From contig NC_092671.1 of the NCBI RefSeq assembly GCF_964355755.1, forward strand, positions 12,710,001 through 12,774,000: a stretch of 64,000 nt of DNA, in the 5' to 3' direction. This document shows positions 4,342 through 42,195 of the stretch, one piece after another. Origin of the DNA: Antedon mediterranea. Lineage: Eukaryota; Animalia; Echinodermata. The notes beneath the pieces are model-generated. The model was not told the origin of the DNA, made no database searches, and was given only the letters and a program-made list of their open reading frames with translations. The position numbers and the translations under genes were made by a program. Numbering within the stretch: position 1 is the first letter of the stretch; each line of letters begins with the position of its first letter.

Positions 4342-4513
4342 GAGTGAGCGCCTAAAATTGCCTGAAACGTACTCTTATTTCACCGAAAATAAATTTTGAA
4401 AATTTTCGCATAGAGATACCGGACCGACAGACAGACCGACAGACCGACAGACAGACCGACCGACCGACCGACCGACATAGTGAACTATAGAGTCGCGTCC
4501 ACGCGACTAAAAA
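4342..4513 (-). mobile_element. 5' end of a Helentron-associated non-autonomous element (HINE/DINE-1-like)
   Basis: The minus strand reads TTTTT-AGTCGCGT-GG-ACGCGACT (inverted repeat 4491-4508), then a (GTCG/GTCT)n microsatellite (4421-4476), then a core similar to the 1.4-kb element at 23511-23575. T-run, inverted repeat, then tetranucleotide microsatellite is the known HINE 5' layout. Confidence 0.7.
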
Positions 4514-16300: not shown

Positions 16301-19300
16301 GTTAACTTTATGGGTGGGTAACTTACCGGGGTAAATAACTAAGCCTTAGTGGAAATGACAAACCAAAATTACATCTTACAATGAACGTCGTCTATAAAGA
16401 TCTTCAGTCCCACGATGTCGGCGTCTTCATCGATCAGGATAGTTTTGTTGTAAAGTTCACTTAAATCTTTATCATTGATTTTACTTTTATAAGGTAGAAT
16501 GATATCACCATTTACACTGAATCCACTTGTAAAGAACACCGGCCCTATAAGACGAATACATATTTATAATATTCAAAATGTTGTCGAGAAAAAAAAACGA
16601 TACGATTTAAATATACATAAAACTAATCATAATCAACTTTATTCGAATTTGGAATTTCAAAATATGTGTAGTTATAGGCTTCATTTTGTAATTATTTGCG
16701 ATAGAAACTAAAATCAGTCAATGGTAATAAATGACACTGTTCCTTACCTTCAATTTCTTGATCAGCATCGAGTAAAACAAAGTTTTCTGGGCGAACACCA
16801 TTTATTGTATCAAACAAAGTCACATTTGATTTAAATGCGATATAATTAGTTGCCAACAGATCACTATATATTGTTTGGCTACCGATCGTTCGAATAAGAT
16901 CTTCATATATATCTACACCATTTAGTTCATAAAGTAGATGGAGATTTTCGAATGTAGTAAGCAAGCCTAGTAGATTTTGAGATGCTGGAAAAGTAAACAT
17001 CGTGAAAATAATAACATTTTTTTTTATCGTATTAAGAAATGTAATTAAGCTAAGCTAAACAGAAAATAAAAGAAAAATTTAAACTGAAATATCACAAATG
17101 ACATCGACTTGAAAACTTATTTAATTTAAAAGTGTTTTAAATAATGGCGAATTGTTCAAATTGGAAACGTTTGCATACGCATGTAATTAGTAAACTCTCC
17201 GGTGCCAATAAAACAGTTAGCTTAACCAATTCAGGGTCATTTCGAAATGTACATTAGTAGTACACTGTTTAAATGCATTCTTTACCATTATTATTTACAA
17301 TATACACTTTTGAAAATTCTGCCTCTTTATAATGTTAAAATAAAGTACATAAAACGAACGATTGAGGCAGGATGGTCTTATTCCCAAATAGCCTTAATCG
17401 TGTAAAGTTGACATTTCTCATATTTAATCTTTTTTATCCTCGATAACCTTCTAAAACATAATCTAAATCATAAAACAAAATAATAATTGTTTTAATGTGT
17501 TTTATGTGTTTTAGATTTATATTCGTAAACAAATTGTAATATTTAAAAATCAATCGCAATTCCGTTTTACTGTGAAGATTATTTTTAATGAATATACCAT
17601 TATGAATGAATAATTTGCTTTTTTTGATGCCTCATTACGCGTCATTTAGGTTTAAATTAAAATATTCATGAATTTTGACAAACCTTCTATAACAACATCG
17701 CCGTGTGTCTTTACAACATTCTTAAATCTATTGATATTTGTTGAATCTATATGGCCATCCAGGATTAACAGATTATCAAAATATACCTCAGCTTCGAAAA
17801 CAACGTCATCTTCCAGTATAATATCATCCGATGTTAAGAATACAGAATTTATAAACTTGTAAAGGTCAATCTAAAAATCAAACATTTGTAATTATGTAAT
17901 TAGTGATTTATTTTCCACACACACCAACAGCCACACACCAGCCAATTGGATGGAGACAATCAAGAAATAGTAAATGATAAGAAAACGAAGCAAATAGCAA
18001 GTGTTATATTAAAATGTAAGCACAAAAATTAAATATATATTTGTAATATAAACATAATCTGTGTCAGGCCACTAATACCTTACCCCATTCATGGTTGTAC
18101 CTAGAAGCATATCAGCGCCGTTGAGGACTGTCACGTTACCCCAGAATGTTTTGTTGCCTTTAATGTATTGATGGTCCTTTGTCATTATGACCAAGTCTTC
18201 AGGAATATAAATCCCATTAAGAGTGCCATTCAGCGCAAGCTCGTCAACATGCACATCCATATCAAATTGTATATCGCCTTTGTACACCTGGCTACCATTG
18301 GTTATAAGTAGATAATCATCTGAAATTTTAGTTTACAATTTGTCATGATACTGTATAGGCAGAATGTAGTATGAACAACACAAATATTTCAAATTAATGA
18401 ATGAACTTTATTTAAAGTATAGAAGTATATATAGGGTGATTCAAACAATGTTTTTATATAACACATAGGCCTAATAGTAGGATTATGACGTAAAATATCA
18501 CTAGGCCTACAATGATTCTAAAGTAACGATAGCAGTGTTATTTTGTACGGTACTTTAAAAGTACATTACATGAATACACTTATTTCATCTGCATCAACAG
18601 TAAACAAAAACATTCATGTGTACTTTATTCTTTACGCAACTATTTCTAATTTTATTACAAAGAGTTGACAAAATAACAACCACAAAAATACAATAAACTA
18701 TATTTTAAACAATGCAAACGACCGCAAAAATTATACCTGGTATCTTATGTTCATTCGCCAACCCCAAAACGAAGACACTAGCACCTGCAGTAACCGTCTC
18801 CATAAAAGTTATATTTCCAAAAATAACAGCGTTTTCGTTCTTCTTAATTGAGACTGAGTCGATATGTTCTATGTTGACTCCATTTATAAGATCATTAGTC
18901 GAGATAACAGAATCATTAACATTTAGACTGGTTACATTTAATAATAAATGAAACGTGACTGTACCTTTGAAAAAAAAAATTAGATTTGAAGAAAAATGAT
19001 GGTGACTGAAGTGTGTGAAATACTTTTCATTTAAAACCGTCCGCTTTCACTGCATAAACACAATCGCCATCATATTGCGAATACATTATCCTCAATTATT
19101 TTTCTATAATTTTATGCAAATTACCAAATAGCTATTTTAAACTTTCCTGATATACATGCCATTCACAAGACATACATAATATGACCTACATAAACAAGAA
19201 AGTCGCACAGAATAAGTTGAGAATGGAGATTTTTTTCATACGCAAACCTCCTGCTATTTGACAGGGTTTGAACCAAGCCAAGTCAAGCAACAACTCATCT

Positions 19301-22300
19301 CGTCACCAGTTTCGAACCCCTGTTTTACACATCTATCTTCTATATATATAAAAGGCAAACACAAAAAGTTTATCCTCTATGCACGCCGCGGTACAACCTC
19401 CGATCGGAGATGGTCATGGTCTATATAGAAAGTTCATAAACAAAATATTTATTAAATTATGACTTCGATTGCAAATCTTGCATAATTATTATATTTACAT
19501 ACATTTCAAGTTTTCTCGGCGCGATGCTAGTCTAATATAATAGCTTACCTCTAACCAGCTGATCTTCAACGTACAGTGAAACAAAATCTAACATTTCGGT
19601 TTCAATAAAATCTAAATTTCTTTCATGTTTGTTGAGTAAATATCGCAACACGAATAAAGACTCAAGTTCAAAATAATCGGCAGTGAAATTTTCGACATAA
19701 AGCGTATTTTCAAATGTCACATTCTCTAAATATGAAAAAAAAATATTAGAAACATAAAATAATTATGTAACAAATAAAAAATTGCTGATTTAGCAACAAA
19801 CAAGAAATCGGTGTAATTTTAGATAAAAAATTAGTATTATATATCGAATTTTTACCGGTGAAACGGAGATTGCTGTAAATACTCTCGTTCTTCGATATAC
19901 TAGCCTTCGTCTCAAGCTCCGTACTTAATTCTCCCAGCCGTTCAATGTTTTCTCTCACTGAATCCTTAAGTTCAGGAATGCTGCTCAATATTTCATTTGT
20001 TTCTCTTATAATTTCTAAATAAATGAATAATTATCTTGTTTAAACACCATTGTCCTTGGCTAAAACTGTTTTATTTGCTTTGTCTCTATCATAAAAATTA
20101 TGCTACTTACCTTTACTCTCATTCATAAAGTTAAACCAATAGAAACTTGAGAAATCTGACAGGTTCGTCGAGTTTTCACCATATGTAAATAAAGTGTAGA
20201 CGTTGCCATCCAATTCAAACACAGACATGTCATGAATAATCGCTCCTCCACCAGAGCGCGCACTCCACTGGGGAAATTGCTGAGTAGATAATACCCAGTC
20301 ACCGGCATCATCGCATTCATATATGACTGCACCTACATAGGGCTAAAATAAAAATAGTAAATGAAGTATTAGACCAGGAAATGTTACCCACCCATACTAC
20401 CTTACCGTATATTAAGGCCTGTTAAAGCCTATACTAGTCGATAATGGCAAATAGGCCTATATAAATATACATTTCTACAGGGGAAAAAGTGTTGCCTAAA
20501 AAATTGAGTTTATTGTATAATTGAGATGTTTCATAAAATATTCTATGTTGTGAAAATAAAGTTTCTTGAATAAATATAATATATACGTACGTCTTCGTTG
20601 GCTACAATTAAAATGTCATCACCATTTGCCAAATTTACATATATTATTTCTTTGGCAGCCGTAGTCGGCAATGATTGGTATTCAAGTACGAGTTGCCCTG
20701 AAATTCAAAATGAGCACAAATTAACGGTGTGGTCGACGATGACGGTGTGGTCGACGATGACGGTGTGGCCGACGATGACGGTGTGGCCGACAATGACGGT
20801 GTTGTCAACGATAACAATTTGACCGACGGTGGACGGTGATAGTGATATGGAAGATGATGTGATATGGAAGATGATAGTGATATGGCAGGCGATAACGATA
20901 TGATTAGGGTAACAATGACAGAAAGAAGGTGAAGTACTTACCCGACCACCAGTAAATTGTAGAATAGGTTTCTTCATATTGAATTTGATCATTTTCGATT
21001 ACATTATTCGTGAAAGCAATAAACGTGTTATGATTCATCTTAAAAGCAGTCACACTTCTAGGAGCCGTAGTGGGTACAGTTTGAATAAGAGTGATGGATG
21101 GACTATCTATTTTAAAAACAAGTGTACAAGTATATTATAAAAAAAATCAACTATTCAGATGCGTAAATAGTGAAATTGTCCCGATATTCTAGCAGTCTAT
21201 TAAAACGAATTAACTTACAAAGGTCTATCTTAAGAATAAGACTACCAATGTCATACTCGAATTCATCATTAACAAACTGAGTCACTGCAACGTACAATTC
21301 CTCGCCAACTTTAAAAAATTCTATGTCCGTGGCACCATGCGTTTCATAAACTAAAATTTCATCGAAATAACTCTCCTTCCATTCGTAGATTCTAAAGAAA
21401 GATATATAACATTTCAATATTGCGTTATTAAGCTAATGTTTAAACAATATAGTTTAAGAAAAGGTGTTCATAAAAACAAAAAATGGTTTCAACACATTTT
21501 CACCTAATTATAGTACTTATTATCATTACAGCATCGATTGACAGGAGCCCAAACGGACCATTGAATATAATGTAGATATATTTTAAAAACTAACCTGATG
21601 TCATTTCTGTATTTAACATTTAGATCTGATCGAAAATTTGCCACACCAAAAATCAATATACCATGATATGTAATACAATCTATGGCCGATGCACCGTTAG
21701 TGGTAAATGTGAAAAAAGGTTCTGGTACTGAAGCTGTACCATCCCAGATATGTAAAGTCGACCTGCCTGTGTACGATAGAGTATTTCCAGAGTTGAACTG
21801 ACCAATTGCCGTAACTAAAAATACCGCGGTGTTGTTTAATGGCAGTATCAGTAAATCTTGAACGAAGGAAGCGTCATATTCCGATAATTTATTAGTGATC
21901 AGTCGACCGTTGTCATTAAAAAACAATGCTATCTCGGCTATATCTTCGTATGCATTAAGAATATAGGTGATACCATCCATAGTGAAACCCCTTGTTACAC
22001 CTTCTGCCCATGCGTCCATGTTACTTTGTTCTATCCTCCACTTATTGTTCGTTGATACATCAAATACTGCCAAATTCAAATATATATACATAAAGTAATA
22101 ATTGATGATGGAAAGATTTGTGGTGAATGTAATTTCGGTAGTTATTTTCTACGCCGTGGACATTAATTGTCCGTAAAGATAACCTTAAAATGTATAATTA
22201 TAACAAAACATTTTTGATTTAAGAACATACCGTCTATATTTCGTTTTTGTCGTGATCTCTCATTACTTAGCATAATCTTTGACAAATCGCGTTTGTATTC

Positions 22301-22474
22301 TTGCAGCTTTTCATCAAGAAAGTTACGAAACGATTTTCTAAACTCCATGGCTTCGGATTCAGTAAGTGTGACGGAGTGTGATAAAGTTGACATGCACATC
22401 GCAAGTAACACGACAAAGTTTAAGTACGTCATCCTAACAAAACAACAATGTTTACACTTACTTATTGACGCCAT
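7321..22474 (-). CDS. Large secreted protein (~2087 aa, 33 exons): signal peptide, RQKR site, N-terminal EAR/EPTP-like repeats, central beta-repeat region, C-terminal EAR/EPTP-like repeats
   Basis: Phase-consistent GT-AG exons: 22474-22231, 22066-21595, 21391-21219, 21106-20942, 20697-20587, 20332-20111, 20014-19856, 19725-19549, 18964-18737, 18319-18084, 17870-17684, 16966-16748, 16544-16380, 16092-15877, 15720-15620, 15446-15293, 15153-14980, 14833-14735, 14554-14407, 14229-14087, 13801-13635, 13482-13356, 13219-13056, 12869-12662, 12546-12319, 12191-11965, 11838-11643, 11401-11217, 10697-10421, 9785-9568, 8572-8356, 8223-7999, 7352-7321 (TGA). Hydrophobic leader YLNFVVLLAMCMSTLSHS. EAR-like motifs: IYEWKESYFDEILVYETHGATDIEFFKVGEELYVAV and QSFVTQGAVTVLF...WLVFANYYD...IYQWSGNNF. 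The start could instead be the next Met (MTYLNF). Confidence 0.9.
8686..8886. mobile_element. MITE (~200 bp), possibly PIF/Harbinger-type
   Basis: Perfect terminal inverted repeat TTAAGCCTGTTTTCCTGTCGACGTT / AACGTCGACAGGAAAACAGGCTTAA. Intronic. Confidence 0.8.
8962..9454. mobile_element. Non-autonomous TIR DNA element (~490 bp)
   Basis: Ends AGGGAGTTTTCGCAA...ACGGATACGTC and GACGTATCCGT...TTGCGAAACCTCCCT are inverted copies. AT flanks both sides (possible 2-bp TSD). Confidence 0.7.
9838..10366 (+). mobile_element. Degenerate LINE 3' fragment (CR1/L2-group-like), antisense within an intron
   Basis: Frameshifted peptide KRACRIIL...TLSDRRRNLCYKFALNCSKS...WFP...PKCR...RYRKSAIPYLISLLNE*, followed by an AT-rich UTR and a (TGAAA)n tail at about 10353-10366. 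Confidence 0.75.
19332..19530 (+). mobile_element. Short non-autonomous Helitron-like element
   Basis: Begins A|TCTATCTTCTATATATATAAAAGG and ends in GC-rich CGGCGCGATG-CTAG|T, i.e. 5'-TC...CTAG-3' between A and T. The subterminal hairpin is weak. Confidence 0.45.
20724..20812. repeat. Intronic 18-bp minisatellite (ACGGTGTGGTCGACGATG), about 5 copies
   Basis: Tandem copies are directly visible, followed by degenerate GAT-rich sequence. Confidence 0.9.
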
Positions 22475-23130
22475 ATTGCCTTGTAACAATGCAAAGTCTG
22501 TCAATATATTCATATAAAACTGTTTGTTTGATTGGCATTATAACCAACCAGATAACTAATATTAATCCAGCTATATCGGCCTAATTTGTAAGATTTATTA
22601 AAAAGTATCCACTTCTTTATATCTAAGAGCCTAACTCTTACCTTGCTCGATCCCAGAAGAAGAAGTTGGGTGTGTACGTATTGCACCAACTTCGCTGTCG
22701 AACCAAGTATTCAGCTTCCTCATAAATTGTCCAGTGGAGTTATTATGCAAATTAAGATTACCGCATGCCTTCCACCGTAACGCTATTTCACTGTTAGTTA
22801 GGCTTTAAAAATAAAATATCAATAGTAAAATGTAATCTATTTTGATGATTAAAATAATAAATAAACACATTATAACTCTTCTGATTGATCGAGAATATAA
22901 CGGTGAACAGTAAATTAATTTTCCTTTCTCAGAAAGACAAACAATCGTAATCCTTAGCAAAAAATGTAAACATCGCCCTCAATAATAATTATGAATAGAA
23001 AAGAAAACAATAGTTAAACAATCAGTAGTATCTTATTTACACATTAGTATCTTCTGCGTGTGCCATTGGTTAGTTGGAACCTATCCGAAAAGCAGTCCAT
23101 GACATTGTAGACATGGGTAAGTGACTAGTT

Positions 23131-24619
23131 TTATTAGGTTATATGCATGATATGCATATAACCTCTTGATTCTGTCAAAATCTTTATTTATTTATTTATT
23201 TATTTATTTATTCTTTCCTTAGCACTATTTGTCCGTGAATTATCTTGGCATCAGTTTCATCTATCTAAGTCAATTTTTCAGAGTATATTCCTTATGGCCA
23301 GGAATCGATGTGGTTATGTTTTCACGATGCGCAATCAAAAATTACGCGGTCTACGCGCGATTTAACGAAATCACGTTTGTAATCATATCTTCACAAACAT
23401 GAATCACTTTTAAACAAAATTTGGTACTCATAAATTTCAGGTCATATTTCATCATATGGCAATACAATTACGTGCGTAGCGCATATAACGCATGCGTACG
23501 CGCGCTTAAAATGTTGAAAATTGTCAGAATTTATTTTCGATGAAATTAGAGTACGTTTCAGGCAATTTTAAGCGTTTAAAAAATTGCCATGAGTGCGCAG
23601 ATTTTTGCACGCGCACTGCGCGTCAAACGTTAATGCGCACTCTTTTTGTCCGATTACTGTTGTGTAACCTTTCTTTAATAATATCATCATATTTTATTCA
23701 CTTTTCAACGCGAAACAGCGTTATACGAGCACGTCAAAAGTGACGGGCTACGCACGTGTAAGTTAACAAAATGGTGAAAATATGCTAAATTTTAAAATTA
23801 ATATATATCGTTAGAATGCTCGGGAACACATATTTTTTATTTAATTTTCTTGAAGTGTATGTATCTTATGTATGATTTATTATTAAACTAAGGGAACAAA
23901 AGTTGATTAAGCCATAATTAATTGCATATTAAATTAAAAAAAATTCATTTCGACAATCAAACAAATTATGACATTTTCTTAGGCCAAAATAACAAACTTA
24001 ACATTAACTTTCTTCCTTCAAAAGTTCATATATTAAAGTTAAAAGTATATAGTTTGACAGTGCATCATTTTTGTACATTTTTAGAGATGTCATCATAGTA
24101 AAAAATTATAATTCATTGCGGTATGTAATAATCTATCTGCACCAAAGTGGTTACTGCATAGTAAATACACGGAGGAATTTTTCTACAATTTTTAGTCAGT
24201 TGTGTATGGCTCGGTGGTGTGTGCTCGTGTCTATGGCACTCAAGGTACCGAGATCGAGTCTCACCTTGGGAAACGAAATAAAATTTTTTTTTTATTGTCC
24301 GTATTGTTTGTTCAAATTTATTTCTTAGTGTATATATTATACACATGATTTATAATGAAATCTAGATAAAAAATAACTTATGTCTTTATTATTATGTAAC
24401 AGCAAATGTGGTTTATGACATTATACGCAGAGGGATCTTTGATCGGATTGTGATACCGGCTATTGTATTCGCGTTAGCAAGGTCCTATCATATATTATAT
24501 ATTATTTAAAGAATCTGAGAAAATCAATGAATCAAAATATCTTTTAAAAATAAATTATCTTTATTTTAATTATCAATGCATATAACCTATAATTCGTCAT
24601 AGTGACGAATTAAATCTAG
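23131..24619 (+). mobile_element. Full-length non-autonomous Helentron/HINE-like element (~1.49 kb)
   Basis: 5' end: AGGTTATATGCAT-gat-ATGCATATAACCT inverted repeat, then (TTTA)n. 3' end: ATGCATATAACCT subTIR, hairpin AATTCGTCA-tag-TGACGAATT, then AAATCTAG|TT. No TSD and T-rich flanks. Confidence 0.85.
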
Positions 24620-24645
24620 TTTCTTTATTTATTTATTTATTTATT

Positions 24646-25027
24646 AGGTTATATGCATGATATGCATATAACCTCTTGATTCTGTCAAAATCTTTATTTA
24701 TTTATTTATTAGGTTATATGCATGATATGCATATAACCTCTTGATTCTGTCAAAATCTTTATTTATTTATTTATTAGGTTATATGCATTATCATGCATAT
24801 AACCTCTTGATTCTGTCAAAATCTTTATTTATTAGGTTATATGCATGATATGCATATAACCTCTTGATTCTGTCAAAATCTTTATTTATTTATTTATTAG
24901 GTTATATGCATGATATGCATATAACCTCTTGATTCTGTCAAAATCTTTATTTATTTATTTATTTATTAGGTTATATGCATGATATGCATATAACCTCTTG
25001 ATTCTGTCAGAATCTTTATTTATTTCT

Positions 25028-25066
<39 letters not shown>
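24646..25066 (+). repeat. Stack of six 5' heads of the HINE-like element, separated by (TTTA)n
   Basis: AGGTTATATGCAT...ATGCATATAACCTCTTGATTCTGTCA.AATC begins at 24646, 24711, 24776, 24834, 24899 and 24968. Confidence 0.95.
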
Positions 25067-28000
25067 TTCTTTCCTTAGCACTATTTGTCCGTCAATTATC
25101 TTGATATCAGTTTCATGTAACTAAGTCAATTTTTCAGAGTATATTCCTTATGGCCAGGAATCGATGTGGTTATGTTTTCACGGTGCGCAATCAAACATTA
25201 CGTGGTCTACGCGCGATTTAATGAAATCACGTTTGTAATCATAACTTCACAAGCATGAATCATTTTTAAACAAAATTTGGTACTCATAAATTTCAGGTTA
25301 TATTTCATCATATGGCAATACAATTACGTGCGTAGCGCATATAACGCATGCGTACGCGCACTTAAAATGTTCAAAATTGTCAGAATTTATTTTCGATGAA
25401 ATTAGAGTACGTTTCAGGCAATTTTAAGCGTTTAAAAAATTACCATGAGTGCGCAGATTTTTGCACGCGCACTGCGCGTCAAACGTTGATGCGCACTTTT
25501 TTTGTCCGATTACTGTTGTATAACCTTTCTTTAATAATATCATCAAATTTTATTCACTTTTCAACGCCAAACAGCGTTATACGAGCACGTCTAAAGTGAC
25601 AGGCTACGCACGTGTAAGTTAACAAAATGGTGAAAATATGCTAAATTTTAAAATTAATATATATCGTTAGAATGCTCGGGAACGCCTATTTTTTATTTCA
25701 TTTTCTTGAAGTGTATGTATCATATGTATGATTTATTATGAAATTAGGAGAAAAAAAGTTGATTAAGTCATCATTAATGGCATATTAAATTTAAAAAAAT
25801 TAATTATGACAATCAATCAAATTATAACATTTTCTTAGGCCGAAATAACAAACTTAACATTAACTTTCTTCCTTCAAAAGTTCATATATTAAAGTTAAAA
25901 GTATGTAGTTTGACAGTGCATCATTTGTTTACATTTTAAAGATGTCATCATAGTAAAAAATTATAATTCATTTCGGTATGTAATAATCTATTTGCATCAA
26001 AGTGGTTACTGCATAGTAAATACACGGAGGAATTTTTCTACAACTTTTAGTCAGTTGTGTATGGCTCGATGGTCTGTGCTCGTGTCTATGGCATTCAAGG
26101 TACCGAGATCGAGTCTCACCTTGGGAAACGAAATAAGATTTTTTTTTATTATCCGTATTGTTTGTTCAAATTTATTTCTTAGTGTATAGATTATACACAT
26201 GATTTATAATGAAATCTAGATAAAAATTAACATATGTCTTTATTATTATGTAACAACAAATGTGGTTTATGACATTATACGCATATGGATCTTTGATCGA
26301 ATTGTGATACCGGCTATGGTGTTCGCGTTAGCAAGGTCCTATCATATATTATAAATAATTAAAGATTCTGAGAAAATCAATCAATCAATATATCTTTTAA
26401 AAATCAATTATCTTTATTTAAAAATCAATGCATATAACCTATAATTCGTCATAGTGACGAATTAAATCTAGTTTATTTATTCTTTCCTTAGCACTATTTT
26501 GTCCGTGCATTATCTTGGCATCAGTTTAATCTAGCTAAGTCAAGTTTTCAGAGTATATTCCTCATGGCCAGGAATCGATGTGGTTATATTTTCACGATGC
26601 GTAATCAAAAATTACGCGGTCTACGCGCGATTTTACGAAATCACGTTTGTAATCATATCTTCACAAGCATGAATCACAATTAAACAAAATTTGGTACTCA
26701 TAAATTTCAGGTCATATTTCATCATATGGCAATAAAATTACGTGCGTAGCGCATATAACGCTTGCGTACGCGCGCTTAAAATGTTCAAAATTGTCAAAAT
26801 TTATTTTCGATGAAATTAGAGTACGTTTCAGGCAATTTTAAGCGTTTAAAAAAATGCCATGAGTGCGCAGATTTTTGCACGCGCACTGCGCGTTAAACGT
26901 TAATGCGCACTCTTTTTGCCCGATTTCTGTTTTACAATCTTTCTTTAATAATATCATCATATTTGATTCAGGTTTCAACTCGAAATTGCGTTATACGAGC
27001 ACGTCAAAAGTGACTGGCTACGCACGTATAAGTTAACAAAATGGTGAAAATATGCTAAATTTTAAAATTAATATATATCGTCAGAATGCAGGGGAACACC
27101 TATTTTTTATTTCATTTTCTTGAAGTGTATGTATCATATGTATGATTTATTATCAAATAAAGAGAACAAAAGTTGATTAAGTCATCATTAATTGCATATT
27201 AAATTAAAAAAAAATAATTTCGACAATCAAACAAATTATGACATTTTCTTAGGCCAAAATAACAAACTTAACATTAACTTTCTTCCTTCAAAAATTCATA
27301 TATTAAAGTTAAAAGTATGTAGTTTGACAGTGCATCATTTGTATACATTTTAAAGATGTCATCATAGTAAAAAATTATAATTCATTTCGGTATGTAATAA
27401 TCTATTTGCATAAAAGTGGTTACTGCATAGTAAATACACGAAGGAATTTTTCTACAACTTTTAGTCAGTTGTGTACGGCTCGGTGGTCTGTGCTCGTGTC
27501 TATGGCATTCAAGGTACCGAGATCGAGTCTCACCTTGGGAAACGAAATAAGATTTTTTTTTATTATCCGTATTGTTTGTTCAAATTTATTTCTTAGTGTA
27601 TAGATTATACACATGATTTATAATGAAATCTAGATAAAAATTAACTTATGTCTTTATTATTATGTAACAACAAATGTGGTTTATGACATTATACGCATAT
27701 GGATCTTTGATCGGATTGTGATACCGGCTATGGTGTTCGCGTTAGCAAGGTCCTATCATATATTATAAATAATTAAAGATTCTGAGAAAATCAATCAATC
27801 AATATATCTTTTAAAAATCAATTATCTTTATTTAAATCAATGCATATAACCTATAATTCGTCATAGTGACGAATTAAATCTAGTTTATTTATTTATTCTT
27901 TCCTTAGCACTATTTTGTCCGTGCATTATCTTGGCATCAGTTTCATCTAGCTAAGTCAAGTTTTCAGAGTATATTCCTTATGGCCAGGAATCGATGTGGT

Positions 28001-31000
28001 TATATTTTCACGATGCGTAATCAAAAATTACGCGGTCTACGCGCGATTTTACGAAATCACGTTTGTAATCATATCTTCACAAGCATGAATCACAATTAAA
28101 CAAAATTTGGTACTCATAAATTTCAGGTCATATTTCATCATATGGCAATAAAATTACGTGCGTAGCGCATATAACGCTTGCGTACGCGCGCTTAAAATGT
28201 TCAAAATTGTCAAAATTTATTTTCGATGAAATTAGAGTACGTTTCAGGCAATTTTAAGCCTTTAAAAAATTGCCATGAGTGCGCAAATTTTTGCACGCGC
28301 ACTGCGCGTTAAACGTTGGTGCGCACTCTTTTTGCCCGATTTCTGTTTTACAATCTTTCTTTAATAATATCATCATATTTGATTCAGGTTTCAACTCGAA
28401 ATTGCGTTATACGAGCACGTCAAAAGTGATTGGCTACGCACGTATAAGTTAACAAAATGGTGAAAATATGCTAAATTTTAAAATTAATATATATCGTCAG
28501 AATGCAGGGGAACACCTATTTTTTATTTAATTTTCTTGAAGTGTATGTATCATATGTATGATTTATTATCAAATAAAGAGAACAAAAGTTGATTAAGTCA
28601 TCATTAATTGCATATTAAATTAAAAAAAAATAATTTCGACAATCAAACAAATTATGACATTTTCTTAGGCCAAAATAACAAACTTAACATTAACTTTCTT
28701 CCTTCAAAAATTCATATATTAAAGTTAAAAGTATGTAGTTTGACAGTGCATCATTTTTTTAAATTTTTAAAGATGTCATCATAGTAAAACATTATAATTC
28801 ATTGCGGTATGTAATATATTCTATCTGCACCAAAGTGGTTACTGCATAGTAAATACACGGAGGAATTTTTCCATAACTTTTAGTCAGTTGTGTATGGCTC
28901 GGTGGTCTTTGCTAGTGTCTATAGCAGTCAAGTACCGAGTTCAAGTCTCACCTTGGGAAACCAAACGAAATAAGATTTTTTTTATTATCCGTATTGGTTG
29001 TTCAATTATATTTCTTAGTGTATAGATTATACACATGATTTATAATGAAATCTAAATAAAAACACCAATGTGGTTTATGACATTATATACGCAGACAGAT
29101 CTTTGATCGGATTATGATACCGGCTATTGTATTTGCGTTAGCAAGATCCTGTCATATATTATAAATAACTAATGATTCTGAGAAAATCAATCAATCAATA
29201 TATCTTAAATCAATCAATTATCTTTATTTAAATCAATGCATATAACCTATAATTCGTCATAGTGACGAATTAAATCTAGTTTATTTATTTATTCTTTCCT
29301 TAGCACTATTTTGTCCGTGAATTATCTTGATATCAGTTTCATCTATCTAAGTCAATTTTTCAGAGTATATTCCTTATGGCCAGGAATCGATGTGGTTATA
29401 TTTTCACGATGCGTATTCAAAAATTACGCGGTCTACGCGCGATTTTACGAAATCACGTTTGTAATCATATCTTCACAAGCATGAATCACAATTAAACAAA
29501 ATTTGGTACTCATAAATTTCAGGTCATATTTCATCATATGGCAATACAGTTACGTGCGTAGCGCATATAACGCTTGCGTACGCGCGCTTAAAATGTTCAA
29601 AATTGTCAAAATTTATTTTCGATGAAATTAGAGTACGTTTCAGGCAATTTTAAGCGTTTAAAAAATTGCCATGAGTGCGCAGATTTTTGCACGCGCACTG
29701 CGCGTTATACGTTAATGCGCACTCTTTTTGTCCGATTTCGGTTGTACAACCTTTCTTTAATAATATCATCATATTTTATTCACTTTTCAACGCGTAATTG
29801 CCTTATACGAGCACGTCAAAAGTGACAGGCTACGCACGTGTAAGTTAACAAAATGGTGAAAATATGCTAAATTTTAAAATTAATATAGATCGTCAGAATG
29901 CTCGGGAACACATATTTTTTATTTCATTTTCTTGAAGTGTATGTATCTTATGTATGATTTATTATTAAACTAAGGGAACAAAAGTTGATTAAGCCATGAT
30001 TAATTGCATATTAAATTAAAAAAAATAATTTCGACAATCAAACAAATTATGACATTTTCTTAGGCCAAAATAACAAACTTAACATTAACTTTCATCCTTC
30101 AAAAGTTCATATATTAAAGTTAAAAGTATATAGTTTGACAGTGCATCATTTTTGTACATTTTTAGAGATGTCATCATAGTAAAAAATTATAATTCATTGC
30201 GGTATGTAATAATCTATCTGCACCAAAGTGGTTACTGCATAGTAAATACACGGAGGAAGTTTTTCTACAATTTTTAGTCAGTTGTGTATGGCTCGGTGGT
30301 GTGTGGTCGTGTCTATGGCACTCCAGGTACCGAGATCGAGTCTCACCTTGGGAAACGAAATAAGATTTTTTTTTTATTAACCGTATTGTTTGTTCAAATT
30401 TATTTCTTAGTGTATATATTATACACATGATTTATAATGAAATCTAGATAAAAAATAACTTATGTCTTTATTATTATGTAACAGCAAATGTGGTTTATGA
30501 CATTATACGCAGAGGGATCTTTGATCGGATTGTAATACCGGCTATTGTATTCGCGTTAGCAAGGTCCTATCATATATTATAAATAATTAAAGAATCTGAG
30601 AAAATCAATGAATCAAAATATCTTTTAAAAATCAATTATCTTTATTTTAATTATCAATGCATATAACCTATAATTCGTCATAGTGACGAATTAAATCTAG
30701 TTTATTTATTTATTCTTTCCTTAGCACTATTTTGTCCGTGCATTATCTTGGCATCAGTTTAATCTAGCTAAGTCAAGTTTTCAGAGTATATTCCTCATGG
30801 CCAGAAATCGATGTGGTTTTTTTTTCACGATGCGTAATCAAAAATTACGCGGTCTACGCGCGATTTTACGAAATCACGTTTGTAATCATATCTTCACAAG
30901 CATGAATCACAATTAAACAAAATTTGGTACTCATAAATTTCAGGTCATATTTCATCATATGGCAATAAAATTACGTGCGTAGCGCATATAACGCTTGCGT

Positions 31001-34000
31001 ACGGGCGCTTAAAATGTTCAAAATTGTCAAAATTTATTTTCGATGAAATTAGAGTACGTTTCAGGCAATTTTAAGCGTTTAAAAAATTGCCATGAGTGCG
31101 CAGATTTTTGCACGCGCACTGCGCGTTAAACGTTAATGCGCAATCTTTTTACCCGATTTCTGTTTTACAATTTTTCTTTAATAATATCATCATATTTGAT
31201 TCAGGTTTCAACTCGAAATTGCGTTATACGAGCACGTCAAAAGTGACTGGCTACGCACGTATAAGTTAACAAAATGGTGAAAATATGCTAAATTTTAAAA
31301 TTAAAATATATCGTCAGAATGCAGGGGAACACCTATTTTTTATTTCATTTTCTTAAAGTGTATGTATCATATGTATGATTTATTATCAAATAAAGAGAAC
31401 AAAAGTTGATTAAGTCATCATTAATTGCATATTAAATTAAAAAAAAATAATTTCGACAATCAAACAAATTATGACATTTTCTTAGGCCAAAATAACAAAC
31501 TTAACATTAACTTTCTTCCTTCAAAAATTCATATATTAAAGTTAAAAGTATGTAGTTTGACAGTGCATCATTTGTATACATTTTAAAGATGTCATCATAG
31601 TAAAAAATTATAATTCATTTTGGTATGTAATAATCTATTTGCATCAAAGTGGTTACTGCATAGTAAATACACGGAGGAATTTTTCTCCAACTTTTAGTCA
31701 GTTGTGTACGGCTCGGTGGTCTGTGCTCGTGTCTATGGCATTCAAGGTACCGAGATCGAGTCTCACCTTAGGAAACGAAATAAGATTTTTTTTTTATTAT
31801 CCGTATTGTTTGTTCAAATTTATTTCTTAGTGTATAGATTATACACATGATTTATAATGAAATCTAGATAAAAATTAACTTATGTCTTTATTATTATGTA
31901 ACAACAAATGTGGTTTATGACATTATATGCATATGGATCTTTGATCGGATTGTGATACCGGCTATGGTGTTCGCGTTAGCAAGGTCCTATCATATATTAT
32001 AAATAATTAAAGATTCTGAGAAAATCAATCAATCAATATATCTTTTAAAAATCAATTATCTTTATTTAAATCAATGCATATAACCTATAATTCGTCATAG
32101 TGACGAATTAAATCTAGTTTATTTATTTATTCTTTCCTTAGCACTATTTTGTCCGTGAATTATCTTGATATCAGTTTCATCTATCTAAGTCAATTTTTCA
32201 GAGTATATTCCTTATGGCCAGGAATCGATGTGGTTATATTTTCACGATGCGTAATCAAAAATTACGCGGTCTACGCGCGATTTTACGAAATCACGTTTGT
32301 AATCATATCTTCACAAGCATGAATCACAATTAAACAAAATTTGGTACTCATAAATTTCAGGTCATATTTCATCATATGGCAATACAATTACGTGCGTAGC
32401 GCATATAACGCTTGCGTACGCGCGCTTAAAATGTTCAAAATTGTCAAAATTTATTTTCGATGAAATTAGAGTACGTTTCAGGCAATTTTAAGCGTTTAAA
32501 AAATTGCCATGAGTGCGCAGATTTTTGCACGCGCACTGCGCGTTATACGTTAATGCGCACTCTTTTTGTCCGATTTCGGTTGTACAACCTTTCTTTAATA
32601 ATATCATCATATTTTATTCACTTTTCAACGCGTAATTGCCTTATACGAGCACGTCAAAAGTGACAGGCTACGCACGTGTAAGTTAACAAAATGGTGAAAA
32701 TATGCTAAATTTTAAAATTAATATAGATCGTCAAAATGCTCGGGAACACATATTTTTTATTTCATTTTCTTGAAGTGTATGTATCTTATGTATGATTTAT
32801 TATTAAACTAAGGGAACAAAAGTTGATTAAGCCATAATTGATTGCATATTAAATTAAAAAAAATTCATTTCGACAATCAAACAAATTATGACATTTTCTT
32901 AGGCCAAAATAACAAACTTAACATTAACTTTCTTCCTCCAAAAGTTCATATATTAAAGTTAAAAGTATATAGTTTGACAGTGCATCATTTTTGTACATTT
33001 TTAGAGATGTCATCATAGTAAAAAATTATAATTCATTGCGGTATTTAATAATCTATCTGCACCAAAGTGGTTACTGCATAGTAAATACACGGAGGAATTT
33101 TTCTACAATTTTTAGACAGTTGTGTATGGCTCGGTGGTGTGTGCTCGTGTCTATGGCACTCAAGGTACCGAGATCGAGTCTCACCTTGGGAAACGAAATA
33201 AGATTTTTTTTTTTTATTATCCGTATTGTTTGTTCAAATTTATTTCTTAGTGTATATATTATACACATGATTTATAATGAAATCTAGATAAAAAATAACT
33301 TATGTCTTTATTATTATGTAACAGCAAATGTGGTTTATGACATTATACGCAGAGGGATCTTTGATCGGATTGTGATACCGGCTATTGTATTCGCGTTAGC
33401 AAGGTCCTATCATATATTATAAATAATTATAGAATCTGAGAAAATCAATGAATCAAAATATCTTTTAAAAATCAATTATCTTTATTAAAATCAATGCATA
33501 TAACCTATAATTCGTCATAGTGACGAATTAAATCTAGTTCTTTCCTTAGCACTATTTGTCCGTCAATTATCTTGATATCAGTTTCATCTAACTAAGTCAA
33601 TTTTTCAGAGTATATTCCTTATGGCCAGGAATCGATGTGGTTATGTTTTCACGGTGCGCAATCAAACATTACGCGGTCTACGCGCGATTTAACGAAATCA
33701 CGTTTGTAATCATATCTTCACAAGCATGAATCACTTTTAAACAAAATTTGGTACTCATAAATTTCAGGTCATATTTCATCATATGGCAATACAATTACGT
33801 GCGTAGCGCATATAACGCATGCGTACGCGCGCTTAAAATGTTCAAAATTGTCAGAATTTATTTTCGATGAAATTAGAGTACGTTTCAGGCAATTTTAAGC
33901 GTTTAAAAATTGCCATAAGTGCGCAGATTTTTGCACGCGCACTGCGCGTCAAACGTTATTGCGCACTGTTTTTGTCCGATTACTGTTGTATAACCTTTCT

Positions 34001-34922
34001 TTAACAATATCATCATATTGTATTAACTTTTCAACGCCAAACAGCGTTATACGAGTACGTCAAAAGTGACAGGCTACGCACGTGTAAGTTAACAAAATGG
34101 TGAAAATATGCTAAATTTTAAAATTAATATATATCGTTAGAATGCTCGGGAACACCGATTTTCTATTTCATTTTCTTGAAGTGTATGTATCATATGTATG
34201 ATTTATTATGAAATTAAGAGAACAAAAGTTGATTAAGTCATCATTAATGGCATATTAAATTTATAAAAATTAATTTCGACAATCAAACAAATTATAAAAT
34301 TTTCTTAGGCCGAAATAACAAACTTAACATTAACTTTCTTCCTTAAGAAGTTCATATATTAAAGTTAAAAGTATATAGTTTGACAGTGCATCATTTAAAA
34401 AAATCTTTAAAGATGTCATCATAGTAAAAAATTATAATTCATTGCGGTATGTAATAATCTATCTGCACCAAAGTGGTTACTGCATAGTAAATACATGGAG
34501 GAATATTTCCATATTTTTTAGTCAGTTGTGTATGGCTCGGTGGTCTTTGCTCGTGTCTATAGCATTCAAGGTACCGAGTTCGAGTCTCACCTTGGGAAAC
34601 GAAACAAAATAAGATTTTTTTTTATTATCCGTATTGTTTGTTCAATTGTATTTCTTAGTGTATAGATTATACAGATATGATTTATAATGAAATTTATTTA
34701 AAAACACAAAATGTGGTTTATGACATTATATACGCAGAAGGATCTTTGATCGGATTACGATACCGGCTATTGTATTTGCGTTAGCAAGATCCTATCATAT
34801 ATTATAAATAACTAAAGATTCTGAGAAAATCAATCAATCAAAATATCTTAAATCAATCAATTATCTTTATTTAAATCAATGCATATAACCTATAATTCGT
34901 CATAGTGACGAATTAAATCTAG
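25067..34922 (+). mobile_element. Seven consecutive headless ~1.4-kb bodies of the same HINE-like element
   Basis: Each body starts TTCTTTCCTTAGCACTAT after 0-3 residual TTTA units (a longer tract before the first). Each ends in subTIR + hairpin + CTAG, at 26471, 27883, 29279, 30700, 32117, 33537 and 34922. Confidence 0.93.
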
Positions 34923-36811
34923 TTTTTATTGTAATATATCAAATGGATTTGCAACCCTACACGGTTTGTTGATGTATTTTGATTAATTTGTTTGTGAGTC
35001 TATGTAATTATTATTATATTATAATTTTATTATAGTCTATAACCACAATATAACTACGTTTTTCGTATTATATTATTTATTCATTCATTTTATTTTATTT
35101 TCTTTATTTCGAATAGTACATCTAAAAAATCATACAAAAAAGAACAAAAAGAGAAACAATTTCACCAAAAAATTTACAATAAGCAACTTCCTCAAAACTA
35201 ACCTACAATATCCTAAAATACAGATTTACACCAACGCTGATGTAGGTTGGATTGTGGAAATTATGATTTATGCTTCTTTTTTTTTAATTTAGAGTCGTTA
35301 AAACGACTCTAAATTTTTTCTCGATATACAAACTTACCGCAAACTAATTAGGGTCATATATAATTTCAATTTCATAATAAATTACATCGAAACGACAGTT
35401 AAAATGTACATGGTAATTGCCGTTAAAAAGTAGTAATTAATTGTTATACAGTGTTGTTAAAATAATACAGTTCTTCATGTTGTTAACATGCTATGGTTCA
35501 CAAAACACGACATCTAAAGCCATACCACGCTTTTGACAATTTTAGAAATCGCAAATATTTAAATCAATAATGACAACAATAAAGAGCCTGAAACTAACGT
35601 TACCTTAGACAATATAGCAAGTGGGGTAAAACTAGACTGTGGGTATTATGTTTTACAGCTTATTGTGAATAAAGAAAATGAGATTATTTGCTTTAGGATT
35701 GTGTTCGCTTTAGCTGTTATTTCATTGAGCTTGAGTGTGTATTTGTGTTACGGGTATGGAAATAATACATCAAAGAAATAGTCAAATAGCGCATTTATGG
35801 AGAGGTTTTCACTCGATCTTCCCACATACTTTATACTTAGGCCTATACCAACCTGTTACGTCGTATGCTTGATTATTTTGGGGTAGGGTGGGGGAAGTTA
35901 ATGTTATGATAGGCCTAGAGATAAAAATATAAAAACTAATGACTTTTATTTCGTGTGGGAAAATAAACATAAGTATTGTGGGAATCTTAAAATGTGAATC
36001 ATCATTGTACGTAATGCCTATTCATTAAACCCTGGTCCTATTGAAATTCCAATAAATCATACACATCTCAGGTTGAAAACAAGGTATTCTCTGTGTAATT
36101 ACAATTGGTTATAGCCCCTGTTCACCCAGCCATTCAATGTTACAGAAAACAAAAATTGCTTTAGTCTATAAACAACGTCAGACCACAGTTATTTATAAGA
36201 TATATCTCCTATTACTAAGCATGAATGTCTGGTAAAAAAAACCCATATAAAGTAATAATAACAATACTACGACACCACACAAATTATATAAATGTAAGAT
36301 TTCATTTTGTTTAAATTAGTCAGTATATAATCTGTTAATTGACCATTATATTTCTAAGAAAAATCTTGATCGATGAAAGTGGGTAAACATTTACTTACTT
36401 TAGATAACAGGACCCACTTATGGTCAGACACAAATGATTTATTGATCTTAGTAAGTTTATTCAAACTGGATATACTAATCCTAATAAGTAGAATCCTTGT
36501 TATAGGCAAAGTGTCCACTTATCAGGGCTATATTTTTATTCTGGCTTACGAAAAGTGAAACAATGATTAGGCAACGCATGTAGAAATTAATGAATTAACT
36601 TTTTAGAGATATCATTTTAACTGAGTCTTACTGTTATACTGATTTTTTGAATTGTTTTATATGTTTATGATGTATGTATTTGTGTTAATCTGGTCAATCA
36701 TCAATAAAATATAAGAACCAGACGGAGGCCTATGTACTGGTTGCCCCTCGTTCGTTTCACATTAATATGGTGTCAACTGTTATAATAATCAATATTCTAT
36801 TTCTCGCAGAT

Positions 36812-39800
36812 ATGGATGAAGACGGATATAGGGCTAATTATATCGAAGTGAAATTATGTGAAGTCGACAAATACTATGATATTTTTGAAGAAATTGGGAA
36901 GTAAGTTTTCAAATACATCACAATTTAAAAGGAGAATGAATAGAGAGAACTGGCAAGAAAAATGCTAATATTAATCGCTGAAATGGTTATATATTTTAAG
37001 GGTGTACCTATGTCTATACTTACTAAAGATAAATCAAGGTCTCATTATTAACAGAATCTGTTTAACGTTTCGAAAATGAATAACAATAATCATTTGTACC
37101 GTTGTATTTAATTGGTTACATGTTCTTGTTGCATGACCAATTATGAAAAGAGTGATCGATCCACCTTGATTTACTATCGGACAGTGTTGATAATTAGGTA
37201 TTATACAAAGCCGATTAGTTGCATTCCTTATTAAACAAATTAATAATCGTTGTATCTTGAACAACCTTGGTGGATCGGCAATTGAGATCGAATGTGGGTT
37301 ATTGCTATATTTAAATCCAATGTATGTATGTAAGATATGTATTTTTAATCAATTTTTACATTATAGGTGTTTATACAGATTGTAAAATGTTAATAGTTAA
37401 GTTATGAATTTCAATATAAATCAGAATAGGTATAATTCAATTTATTTAATAAGTGAATTGCTTGGGTACCGACTGCCAATCATTATAAGACTTCCAAGAT
37501 TAAATTCAATACGGTAGGTCTCGTACATTTTGGCCTAATGAATAAGTTAGCTGCTTGGGTACCGTACCGCAGTAAACAAGTAATATTAATTAGGCAAAAT
37601 CTGTCAAACTAGCCCCCTCCTAAAATAAACATTTCAATAGGCTTAATTCGTTAATTAATAAGTATGTCATTTGGATAAAGAGAAAAAAGGGCATTGGTTT
37701 ACAAATGTAATCATTATAATGCTGAATTTGCAAAAGTAAACTAAATCAAAAGGTCAGGCTATTTTTTTAGTACAATACACTTATATTTTGCATTTTACAC
37801 CAAGATAATTCGTGACGCGATAAATGTTTTTATAGTCTGCCATGAATACCACCGCTTTGTTTTCAAATTGAACGAGCGCTAAGAAATAACCAATGATCGC
37901 ATTGTTACCGTATAATCTTTATGACAATGCTTGATTAGTGCAGAACAGGCTTATTCAGTATTATATTAATCAGATACGTATAGTTATATTTGTATTACGC
38001 ACAGGAATTAAATGTACAACCACAATGAAAACAAATTGCTGTTCTCCTGACGTTAATCGATGTAGATTATCATGCCCATGTCCATTAATTTCAATACATA
38101 TTTTTACTAATATGTTATGTATAAATACATCGTACTATCATATTATTAGATAGTAGGTTTAACTTAACAGTTGAAATCAAAAGAAGTTGCTAATGACTAT
38201 ATGTAATATATATGACATTAAAAGGGTTTTCTCGTGTGAATATTATGGCCTACTCTTAATGTTTCAACTAAATATCTGATACACAAACTACGTGTATGAT
38301 GCACAATATAGCATACCTAATGATACGATGCTGTGATTTTAATTAAGTATATAATTATGTGTTTATGGCAATGATGATATAACAAGTATGATGCTATACT
38401 GATGATGTGGGCGATGATGCTGATTCGAAGACCAATACCAGTGCTACGTACTTAACGAACAAGGATAATTCTTTTACTTTAAGGGGTAGGTTCGGAGTTG
38501 TCCATCGATGTGTTGAGAAAGCTACCGGCAAGACATGGGCAGCAAAATGCGTTCGTGCCCTTCGTCGAAAAGACCGGGATGAAATCAAGAGAGAAGTTGA
38601 ACTGATGTCAATACTAGAGCACCCAATGCTACTACAATGTGGGGGCGCTTTTGAAGGGCGTTCTTCAATGACCATCATACTTGAACAGTAAGTATTCTCA
38701 TGCAGTTACTTAATTGTATTCTGTATTAAGTTTTAATTTATTTCTTTCTTATATTGCACAATCAACACCGGTACCACAATTTGGCGATGGTACACAATGA
38801 ACAATATACAACAAAGATTTGAAAAAAGTTAGGCCTACTATTAATAAAATCTCACCTTTTCAGTTTATACTGAATTTATAATTAGATAATCTGGGATCCA
38901 ATTTATAAACCAATTTATCAGATTTGAAAGACAGAATCACCGTGTGAGTTTTTAAAACAATATTGAAAAGAGCTGTTTATCGTTCCACTTGGAATATTTT
39001 CAAGGATCTAATTGCTTCTAGTTTTAAAAAGTATTTATAAATGGGACAATATTGAATTCATGATCTTTTAGAATATAAAATTAATTATGCTTGTAATTAA
39101 TTTCAAAGATTAGCTGCAAATTTGTAATCCTATCACCGTTTTTTATGGATCGATATAGGCTATATGAACCAACGTTTAAAAAATCACAAATTTAACTTAA
39201 TTTTGATGGGATCAAGAAAAATACGTTTATTCAATTATGTTGATTCAGAATATTTCCAGTTGTTGTTAATGTACGAAGTGTTCAATACTCACTTTTGTGC
39301 AATTCACCCATCTTGATTTATGTGATGTTTTCAGCGTATCTGGTGGGGAGTTATTTGAACGCATCATCTCCGATGACTTCGAGTTCTGTGAAAGCGACGC
39401 GGTCATCTTCATGCGGCAGATATGTCTCGGGGTACAACACATGCATAAACTGAACATTGTACACCTTGATCTGAAACCTGAGAATATAATGTGTATGGAC
39501 AAACGTAGTAATCGAATCAAGATAATAGACTTTGGATTGTCTAGGAAGTTGAAACCTGGAGAGGCAATGAAAGTGATGTTTGGAACACCAGAGTTCATTG
39601 CACCAGAAGTAATCAACTACGACCCTATTGAAACATTAACCGATATGTGGAGTGTCGGGGTTATCTGCTATATTTTGTAAGATTTACCATTAACATGCAT
39701 ATTAAAATTAAATATAATAATATAATATATCACGTAATGCATACTTATGAAGAATTTATTATGAAGGTGTATGTGTCATACAAATATAGGCATATTGATA

Positions 39801-42164
39801 AGAATAATTATGACGTTCTTAATGATGGCGCTATTTTTAATAGTCTTTCACACCTGTTCCGGCACGGTTTCGGTCCGGCAAATCGAACAGCAATGTTTCG
39901 TTTTCACGACGCTCCACGTGGCTATACGCCAATCGATATTCGTGTAGCAGCGTGAAAACGAAACATTGACGTTCGATTGGATTTTCCGGCGCCGGACCGG
40001 AACAGGTGTGAAATACACTTTAAACGTGTTTTTATTGTGATAATTTAGCATATCCCAACACATATAGCACAATTATGTACAAATTAATTTAATAACTAAT
40101 ATTAGATACTAAATGGTGAAAAGAGACGTAACATATCTAGCTACATAAGCATGTCATGATTACGTATTTGTATATAAAATGTGTATGTAGGTTGAGCGGC
40201 TTTTCGCCATTTCTTGGTGACTTGGATACAGACACTCTGAACAATGTAACTCGAGCGGAATGGGACTTTGACGATCCAGCATTCGACACTATTTCCGAAG
40301 ATGCTAAAGCATTCATTGAAGCATTGTTGATTAGACTTCCAAGGTAATGTATATCACACAGTACCTCAATGAAAATGAAGTGGTTTTTATCCACCATTTT
40401 TAAAACGGTTTGGCTGTTTACTTTGCAAATATTGTGTCTTCAAACAACTATAATATAGAGATGTCGTCATCGTTTTTTTTAATTCTCCACTAATACTGAT
40501 TATTATTACTTTGCAACCCAGTATGTGTGTCCATTGTATGTATTAATGATAAACAGGTGACACAAAGGGTTAAATGTTATAGTAATATTAATTCATGGTA
40601 CAGGACATTTCTGCCTTCATGAGGAAAGCGACCTTGAAATATGTTGTCGATTTACTCTGGGGACAACCCTTGGGGATGTAGCTATATAGTTGCTGCTACG
40701 TGTACTTAAATCAAAGTCCCAACTTCACAGAGTAAATGATAATAAACTAACACATCAAGACTCTGTGACACATTAATTATATATTATGGTCGTTTATTAA
40801 GACTAGTATTCTAAAATAAGGGGTTTTATACTCACTTTTAACTGCCAATAATCAAAAACATTTAATTAATTGATTTATTTAGAATACGAACCTTTTCGTA
40901 ATTCCAGCAATCTTTATCAAGGTAAATTTAAATAGGTTTATAACGGTCAAAAGTCATGTATTAATTCATGGGTTCGTTGGTAAAGTGAAATGTGTTTTAA
41001 TATCAAACAAAAAAGGGTGAACTAGCGTCATAACTGTACAAATTTGATTTACGATCAAGTGGCTGGCCAGTACTTAGCGATGGAAGAGAACATTCAAACA
41101 AGTGACTCCTTTTATTTTTCAGGAAGCGTAATTGTGCTGAAGAGTGCCTAAGACACGGATGGTTGGCTGGGGACACAAGGCCAAAGGAGACGACTCGACT
41201 TTCTACCGAAAAACTAAAAAGATACGTTGCTAAAAGACGGTGGCAGGTAAGTGATTTCAAGGATTAGTATAGCTTATGGAAGGCAATCGCCGCCAAAAAT
41301 ACAAAAGTAAAACAAACAACGTACTTTCACAAACGAACAACGTGCTTTCACAAACGAACGATCTAAATTAAAACAAACAACGTACTTTCACAAACGAACA
41401 ACCAACTTTCACAAACAAACAACCTACTTTCACAAACGAACGATCTAAATTAAAACAAACATCGTACTTTCACAAACGAACGAACTAATGTAAAACAAAC
41501 AACGTACTTTTACAAACGAACAACCTACTTTTACATTAACAGCGTATTTTTTTCAAACGGACAACGTACATTGGTAAACGAACAACCTGCTTTACCAAAC
41601 GATGTAGATTGCCGAATGAACTAAGGACTCGTCCATTTTCTAAGTCGGGTAATAAAGGTTTATCGAAAATACCTTGATTTCGCGAGAAACGTCATTGCAC
41701 AATGCATGCTGGGAAGGGTTTGGGAGCATAGCGCCACACCGGCGTATAATACAAACTTTATATGTGCAAAAGTTTCGATAAGAGGATATGACGTAGAGGG
41801 CGCTTAAAGCGAGCATTGCGCGCGTAAGCAAAACTCATCCTGACAAAACGCCGTCAAAACTACACGTGTGTAGATAGTAGTAGCTACCTTTTTACTGCAA
41901 AACGTATGCAATATGGCCGGTAACAATTCTGAGACCCTGAGTGAAGCAATTAGACTGTTGAACAGAGCAGTTGGACTTCTGGTTCAACATCCTCCTGGTA
42001 AGTACTACCATTTATTTTTAATTTTTGGATCTATTTATTATATTATTCCCTCTAACTGAATCTATACCATACTTCTGCTCAGTGTGTTGTTATAGCGACG
42101 GCTTGCTAGCATACCCACGAGCAGTACGTGATGGCCAACATGGAAGACTAGACCTTATTCAATA

Positions 42165-42195
<31 letters not shown>

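Follow-up and report, generated by a model that had tools for sequence, protein, structure and literature searches.

Stacked heads and bodies of a non-coding HINE-type element in Antedon mediterranea: a probable nest in the element's own TTTA tract

How can a transposable element come to lie in an array that gathers its 5' heads on one side and its bodies on the other? The question is raised by a segment of the Antedon mediterranea genome within a stretch of 64,000 nucleotides (NC_092671.1, positions 12,710,001 to 12,774,000, forward strand), which we call the window and in whose coordinates all positions are given. An earlier sequence-only reading of 23131..34922 had described one complete copy of a HINE-like element, followed by six heads and then seven bodies, and had proposed that the element inserted repeatedly into its own (TTTA)n tract. 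Parsing the segment into heads and bodies confirmed this order: H1 B1 H2-H7 B2-B8, all on the + strand, with seven heads and eight bodies. We consider it probable that the array arose by nesting, copies of a single non-coding HINE-type element from several donors having inserted into the element's own TTTA tract, with a composite founder and perhaps one or two duplicated layers; this judgement was made on a single locus.

Layout of the array

The heads, 47-48 bp long, start at 23136, 24646, 24711, 24776, 24834, 24899 and 24968 (H1-H7), and the bodies, 1382-1407 bp long, end in CTAG at 24619, 26471, 27883, 29279, 30700, 32117, 33537 and 34922 (B1-B8). As had been noticed before, bodies begin downstream of the TTTA tract and run to the CTAG: all eight have the identical start base, the same inverted repeat, the hairpin and the CTAG. 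The linkers measure 30 nt (H1-B1), 26 nt (B1-H2) and 54 nt (H7-B2); from head to head (H2-H7) they are 18, 18, 10, 18 and 22 nt, and from body to body (B2-B8) 10, 14, 14, 14, 14 and 2 nt. Every linker keeps the TTTA phase. BLAST detected no further copies of the family in the window outside the array. The span first given for the array required only a refinement of its limits, to about 23135-34923.

23135..34923, + strand: complete nested array (H1 B1 H2-H7 B2-B8) with one T included per end; in run X5, 23133 is followed directly by 34923 at the orthologous site, which is empty
23135..23182, + strand: head H1, a 14-bp subterminal inverted repeat within a palindrome with a 13-bp stem (23136-23164), then 18 bp
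23183..23212, + strand: intact tract (TTTA)7TT, 30 nt, seven TTTATT sites
23213..24619, + strand: body B1, unpaired; 3' inverted repeat 24576-24589, hairpin 24590-24612, CTAG 24616-24619
24620..24645, + strand: 26-nt linker with a TTTC interruption, which nesting would make part of B8's own tract
24646..25014, + strand: six-head stack H2-H7, spaced by 18, 18, 10, 18 and 22 nt of tract; small variants in H4 and H7
25015..25068, + strand: intact tract of 54 nt, the innermost one, interrupted by TTTC
25069..26471, + strand: body B2, innermost; 5' half resembles B8, 3' half resembles B3/B6
26482..27883, + strand: body B3, 1.1% from B6
27898..29279, + strand: body B4; 5' part resembles B3/B6, 3' part is sister to B8
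29294..30700, + strand: body B5, 1.2% from B7
30715..32117, + strand: body B6
32132..33537, + strand: body B7
33540..34922, + strand: body B8, outermost, with only two T in front

Read as brackets, H2-H7 pair with B7-B2 and H1 pairs with B8, leaving B1 unpaired. The sequence-only reading was right that there is one body too many, but it is not among the last seven. The array contains no direct head-to-tail junction: its sole body-to-head junction holds 26 nt of tract, and the remaining ones are head-head or body-body. It thus lacks the directly joined, alternating units that define head-to-tail tandems, whether made by rolling-circle copying or by double insertion.

The repeated unit

The unit of the array is a 1.49-kb non-coding element. 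It carries a pair of 14-bp subterminal inverted repeats (23135-23148 and 24576-24589), one or the other of which is present in each head and body, a 5' stem-loop with a 13-bp stem and a 3-nt loop (the DNA fold of 23128-23190 has -12.8 kcal/mol), the left-module microsatellite (TTTA)7TT at 23183-23212 and a 3' hairpin at 24590-24612 with a 10-bp stem, 7 nt before the end of the CTAG. Only one stop-to-stop frame of at least 100 aa was found in the array (104 aa, in B7 only). Summed contig depth on the head is ~1,800x that of the flank in run X6 and ~2,060x in run X7; such a ratio is not a copy number and gives an order of magnitude only, at which level it is a sign of an interspersed high-copy family with thousands of copies. 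In its repeats, hairpins, microsatellite, lack of coding capacity, lack of target duplication and copy number the element is a HINE, i.e. a non-autonomous Helentron (HLE2), as initially suggested, and its anatomy matches the published descriptions of HINE (PMC4067079; PMC7492417, oyster Cg_HINE) and HLE2 (PMC11417382). It is not a canonical Helitron (HLE1): it starts with (T)TAGG and not TC and has inverted repeats, so that only the hairpin and the CTAG end are shared. A Pfam scan of 11 of the 41 window frames revealed no Rep/helicase, and thus no autonomous partner with the same termini was seen there. The 3' hairpin had no matches (0) in metagenome contigs.

A second HINE-like element occupies window positions 1-4513 on the minus strand, with a T run, a hairpin and a GTCY microsatellite (4422-4477); its 98-bp and 374-bp tandem repeats extend past the window start. 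They are interrupted by a frame (793-1224) that we take to be LINE-like and that has no Pfam match. A 59-bp stretch of the array's bodies is 91.5% identical to this element at 4349-4407. Adjoining it, at 4515-7000, is an array of tandem repeats of ~149-185 bp.

The empty site

Of nine public runs (X1-X9), contigs from X4-X7 were compared with 22700-24640; X1-X3 (shares 0.11-0.14) do not enter the results, nor do X8 and X9, which come from the sample of X6 and X7. X5 comes from a relative (organism B), and X6 and X7 from one sample of organism C, which is possibly the assembled one, so these two runs are not independent of the assembly. A single X5 contig, of depth 8, agrees with 22982-23126 at all but 7 of 145 letters (4.8% divergence) and continues through the letters of 23127-23133 directly into 34923-34935. 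The orthologous site is empty in this relative; there is no target duplication, as the sequence-only reading had stated for Helentrons in general, and the array represents a net gain of two T. This site also ruled out a target duplication that we had considered because of CTAGTTTTT-like text on both flanks.

A contig of 3,822 nt in X6/X7 shows 0 differences to the flank over 436 nt and diverges from the window at 23135. Its 28 letters beyond that point are unmatched; exactly this number would be expected if the contig carried an empty allele and stopped 30 letters into the right flank. From this count, and not from the letters themselves, we infer that the contig fits an empty allele in the same species. 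Other contigs show the array from inside: among the 24 of 710 loose ends of X7 that were covered, a body-to-body junction with a 14-nt linker occurs in at least one contig and heads preceded by TTTA in at least two. The 18 scattered records from X4 include no array junction.

Insertion sites in the tract

If the array is a nest, removing its layers from the inside out should restore the host tracts. Assigning two T to the element, the end rule taken from the empty site in X5, we obtained perfect host tracts of 30 (21+9), 30 (17+13), 22 (9+13), 30 and 30 nt, the intact H1 tract also being 30 nt. Two different splits, 17+13 and 21+9, both summing to 30 would arise with a chance of ~0.016 for arbitrary linkers. 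At all seven reconstructable insertion sites, among them the outer one in genomic sequence, the cut lies within TTTATT; with one T per end the cut reads T^T at 7/7 sites, and with both T at the 5' end A^T at 7/7. All six internal sites fall in tracts and none at the body's eight other plus-strand TTTATT sites. Landing in the element's own tract, as proposed, is supported to this extent; carrying the motif is not enough by itself, since TTTATT has a density of 3.6 per kb in the rest of the window.

Further evidence comes from the TTTC interruption, which is confined to the tract in front of B2 and the B1-H2 linker. Under nesting, this linker belongs to B8, at a distance of 8.9 kb, and the 5'-half tree places B2 and B8 as sisters (support 100/99). 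We regard the match of the linker with B8's clade as a modest, independent sign of nesting, expected by chance in about 1 in 7 cases by our own estimate.

A long tract is not always occupied in the window: a (TTTA)7 tract at 42166-42193 on the minus strand, within a large DNA-transposon-like element, is free of a HINE copy.

Divergence among the bodies

The eight bodies differ pairwise by 1.1-8.2%, every pair by at least 16 substitutions, with 5-8% between body types. Their private substitutions number 8, 20, 3, 22, 8, 13, 6 and 30 (B1-B8). Neighbouring bodies are no more alike than in shuffled orders (P 0.45), and periodic similarity at lags 1, 2 and 3 was not significant (P 0.45, 0.34 and 0.27). 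There is a recombination signal among them: 878 of 1503 distant site pairs are incompatible vs 52 of 541 near ones. Half-body trees conflict for B1, B2 and B4, and the 3' part of the mosaic B2 is 1.1% from its neighbour B3.

The same variation exists in the family at large. Among 40 of 250 variant rows, 34 variants lie above 10% of the X6 depth; all but three of these (31 of 34) also segregate among B2-B8, the three misses lying in gapped stretches. What separates the body types is therefore subfamily variation found throughout the family, and at least four contributing donors are indicated, unless gene conversion imported the variants. The divergence of the flank from the X5 relative (7/145, 4.8%) is lower than the 5-8% between body types. 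We had also considered that the central variant of H4 was a family-wide variant in the run contigs; this was dropped, as the letters differ.

Genomic surroundings

Upstream of the array lies a multi-exon gene on the minus strand (22163-22432 and 9500-22150), apparently starting with an ATG at 22432 and a signal-peptide-like sequence; six of its frames have no Pfam match. The 11.8-kb array insertion is in the upstream region of this gene, ~0.7 kb from the ATG, and likely segregates.

On the other side, the window holds a 12.2-kb DNA-transposon-like element (41271-53512), whose inverted ends of ~400 bp are 94% identical and built of 21-bp units. It contains an integrase-core frame at 50331-50954 on the minus strand (Pfam rva_4, E 6e-70). 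Its frame 46409-46849, which has no Pfam match, presumably resembles a HECT-type domain. A 1.2-kb miniature element with the same inverted ends (53631-54842) follows 120 bp away. The 12.2-kb element lies between exons identified with Pfam as protein kinase (39270-39680, +) and I-set (56073-56729, +), which we take to belong to a myosin-light-chain-kinase-like gene.

How the array may have formed

In the mechanism that we propose, Rep/helicase from an unseen autonomous Helentron would move the element. Each insertion would split the host tract, leaving the host head on the left and the host body on the right, and would bring a fresh full-length tract that could be hit next. The founder was likely an H1-B1-linker-B8 composite, whose transposition would have started at an inner head and read through past the B1 terminator. 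The sequence-only reading had attributed the surplus body to a lost head or a later unequal crossover; we keep head loss, here deletion of the outer head, as an alternative founder route and add the published read-through route (PMC3288121), which fits B1. As TTTATT is a common motif, we also suppose that long intact tracts next to the hairpin are preferred. One or two layers may have arisen by local duplication and not by fresh jumps.

Several observations weigh against nesting in this form. When left and right linkers are re-paired at random, four sums of 30 also arise in 20% of the pairings; by itself, the pairing of splits is therefore weak evidence. Three layers have one and the same split, and a length of 14 nt recurs in four body-side linkers out of six (P 0.035 under uniform choice among seven sites). 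Five successive hits on the newest tract have a P of 5e-4 to 7.5e-3 if all tract sites of the locus are equal. In a rough model with 1,000-3,000 copies in an assumed genome of 0.3-1 Gb, 0.2-2% of the motifs belong to the family; a stack six layers deep should then arise by chance at most 1e-7 times, and a self-landing rate of ~26-32% is needed for one. The motif alone is therefore too common to suffice, and either a preference for long intact tracts at the hairpin, jumps of composites or duplication of layers has to be invoked as well. The 95% interval of flank divergence (2-10%) overlaps the divergence of the bodies; an age gradient from inside to outside was sought in the private substitutions and not found; and B3/B6 and B5/B7, just 1.1-1.2% apart, stand in an order that a duplicated two-layer block could give. 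Of the original claim, nesting in the element's own tract is supported by the peeled tracts and by TTTATT at every site, with several donors, but neither a separate jump for each layer nor the suggested safe-haven benefit is shown.

In a rival history, one or two self-insertions were followed by unequal exchange, by which the head unit (65 bp) and the body unit (1.4 kb) multiplied independently of each other, with variation supplied by gene conversion from dispersed copies. The recurring linker lengths (18 nt three times, 14 nt four times), the near-identical heads, the B3/B6 and B5/B7 pairs, the mosaic B2 and the recombination signal all agree with such a history. We nevertheless judge it unlikely: neither the 6:6 balance nor the compensating 22/10 pair nor the agreement of the TTTC linker with B8's clade follows from independent expansion, conversion would have had to be wholesale to produce 5-8% at a site that postdates the split from the relative, and neighbours are not more alike than when shuffled. 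Alternatively, the nest could have grown outward elsewhere, a ready-made composite being copied whole, from outer head to late terminator, and landing in another copy's tract until a last jump brought it here. This would yield the strict bracket order without repeated hits on one locus and would account for bodies whose divergence predates the site, for the likely empty allele and for the surplus body; mobilisation of nested Helitrons as composites has been proposed (PMC3288121, PMC5148889). However, it needs read-through of up to seven intact terminators, the 3' ends being identical and intact in 8/8 bodies, and frequent landing in the own tract would still be required, so that it alters the order of events and not the self-targeting. 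We consider outward growth quite improbable. There remains the worry, raised at the outset, that the array is an artefact of assembling a high-copy repeat. The family is indeed very abundant (summed contig depth ~2,000x flank) and no read spanning the array was seen. Collapse or duplication by the assembler is nonetheless unlikely, because body-body and tract-head junctions are present in read-derived contigs of X7 and no two bodies are identical, and both flanks join correctly in the empty site; we give an artefact hardly any credence.

Going beyond nesting as such, it is tempting to speculate that those Helentrons in which the left-module microsatellite fits the target home in on this microsatellite. 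The transposase would be drawn to the 5' hairpin of a resident copy and the next copy would enter the intact tract beside it in at least a quarter of jumps. The result would be a self-growing, innermost-first stack recording the order of subfamily activity, here of six layers, at a site 0.7 kb upstream of a gene where an empty allele would still segregate; such a route might operate across animal genomes. We put this forward as a tentative possibility, about which some doubt is in order.

Relation to known systems

Transposon-derived arrays of another kind are the rolling-circle Helitron arrays reportedly described by Xiong in 2016 and known to us through a citing review (PMC12628747). For the published systems that follow, all statements refer to the portions of the cited papers that we drew on. 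Site preference produces tandem transposon dimers by double insertion (PMC5932611), and shuffled oyster Helitron loci have been reviewed (PMC12628747). Like our array, dimers and rolling-circle arrays illustrate how site preference or rolling-circle copying seeds transposon-derived satellites; unlike it, they consist of units joined head to tail or combine many 5' ends with a single 3' end. MuTAnT (PMC4486113) likewise inserts into a simple repeat, but it is Mutator-type and its target is a host repeat not carried in the element.

Self-nesting of Helitrons is already published for maize and Fusarium. In maize, Helitrons with surplus 3' ends have been explained by nests, through transposition from an inner 5' end (PMC3288121). 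Nesting and surplus 3' ends are thus common to both systems, but the maize elements are canonical Helitrons whose internal 3' ends lack an intact CTAG in 99 of 100 cases (8/8 are intact in the array), and no fixed internal target is described in those portions. For Fusarium FoHeli, self-insertion near the 5' end has been proposed to yield stacked short 5' termini (PMC5148889), and the Xenopus Helentron HelenXT233 has two left termini (PMC11417382). Both have several heads and one 3' end, whereas the array keeps both sides of six layers in place.

Closest in anatomy are the HINE/DINE-1 elements (PMC4067079, PMC7492417, PMC11417382), with subterminal inverted repeats, a 5' inverted repeat, a left-module microsatellite, a 3' hairpin, no coding capacity, a T-rich target and no target duplication. 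Their microsatellite is usually GTCY, whereas that of the array element is TTTA, itself a row of targets, and the descriptions, in the portions used, contain no nesting in the microsatellite. The CTAG end and the possible A^T reading recall the proto-Helentron of PMC4067079. Likewise, the portions of PMC12001565 and PMC4486113 contain nothing on self-nesting, and we found no description of a HINE that nests repeatedly in its own microsatellite in the main texts of the open-access literature searched.

Implications

HINE microsatellites have been described without a known role; if our interpretation is true, one of them serves as the element's own landing site. It would also represent a route from a dispersed transposon to a minisatellite (the heads) together with a macrosatellite (the bodies), a route different from both rolling-circle concatemers and side-by-side double insertion. 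The array would supply the nested intermediates proposed for Helitrons with surplus ends, and it offers a sharp test of Helentron target choice. Such stacks would also reveal the temporal sequence of subfamilies and give rise to large insertion polymorphisms close to genes.

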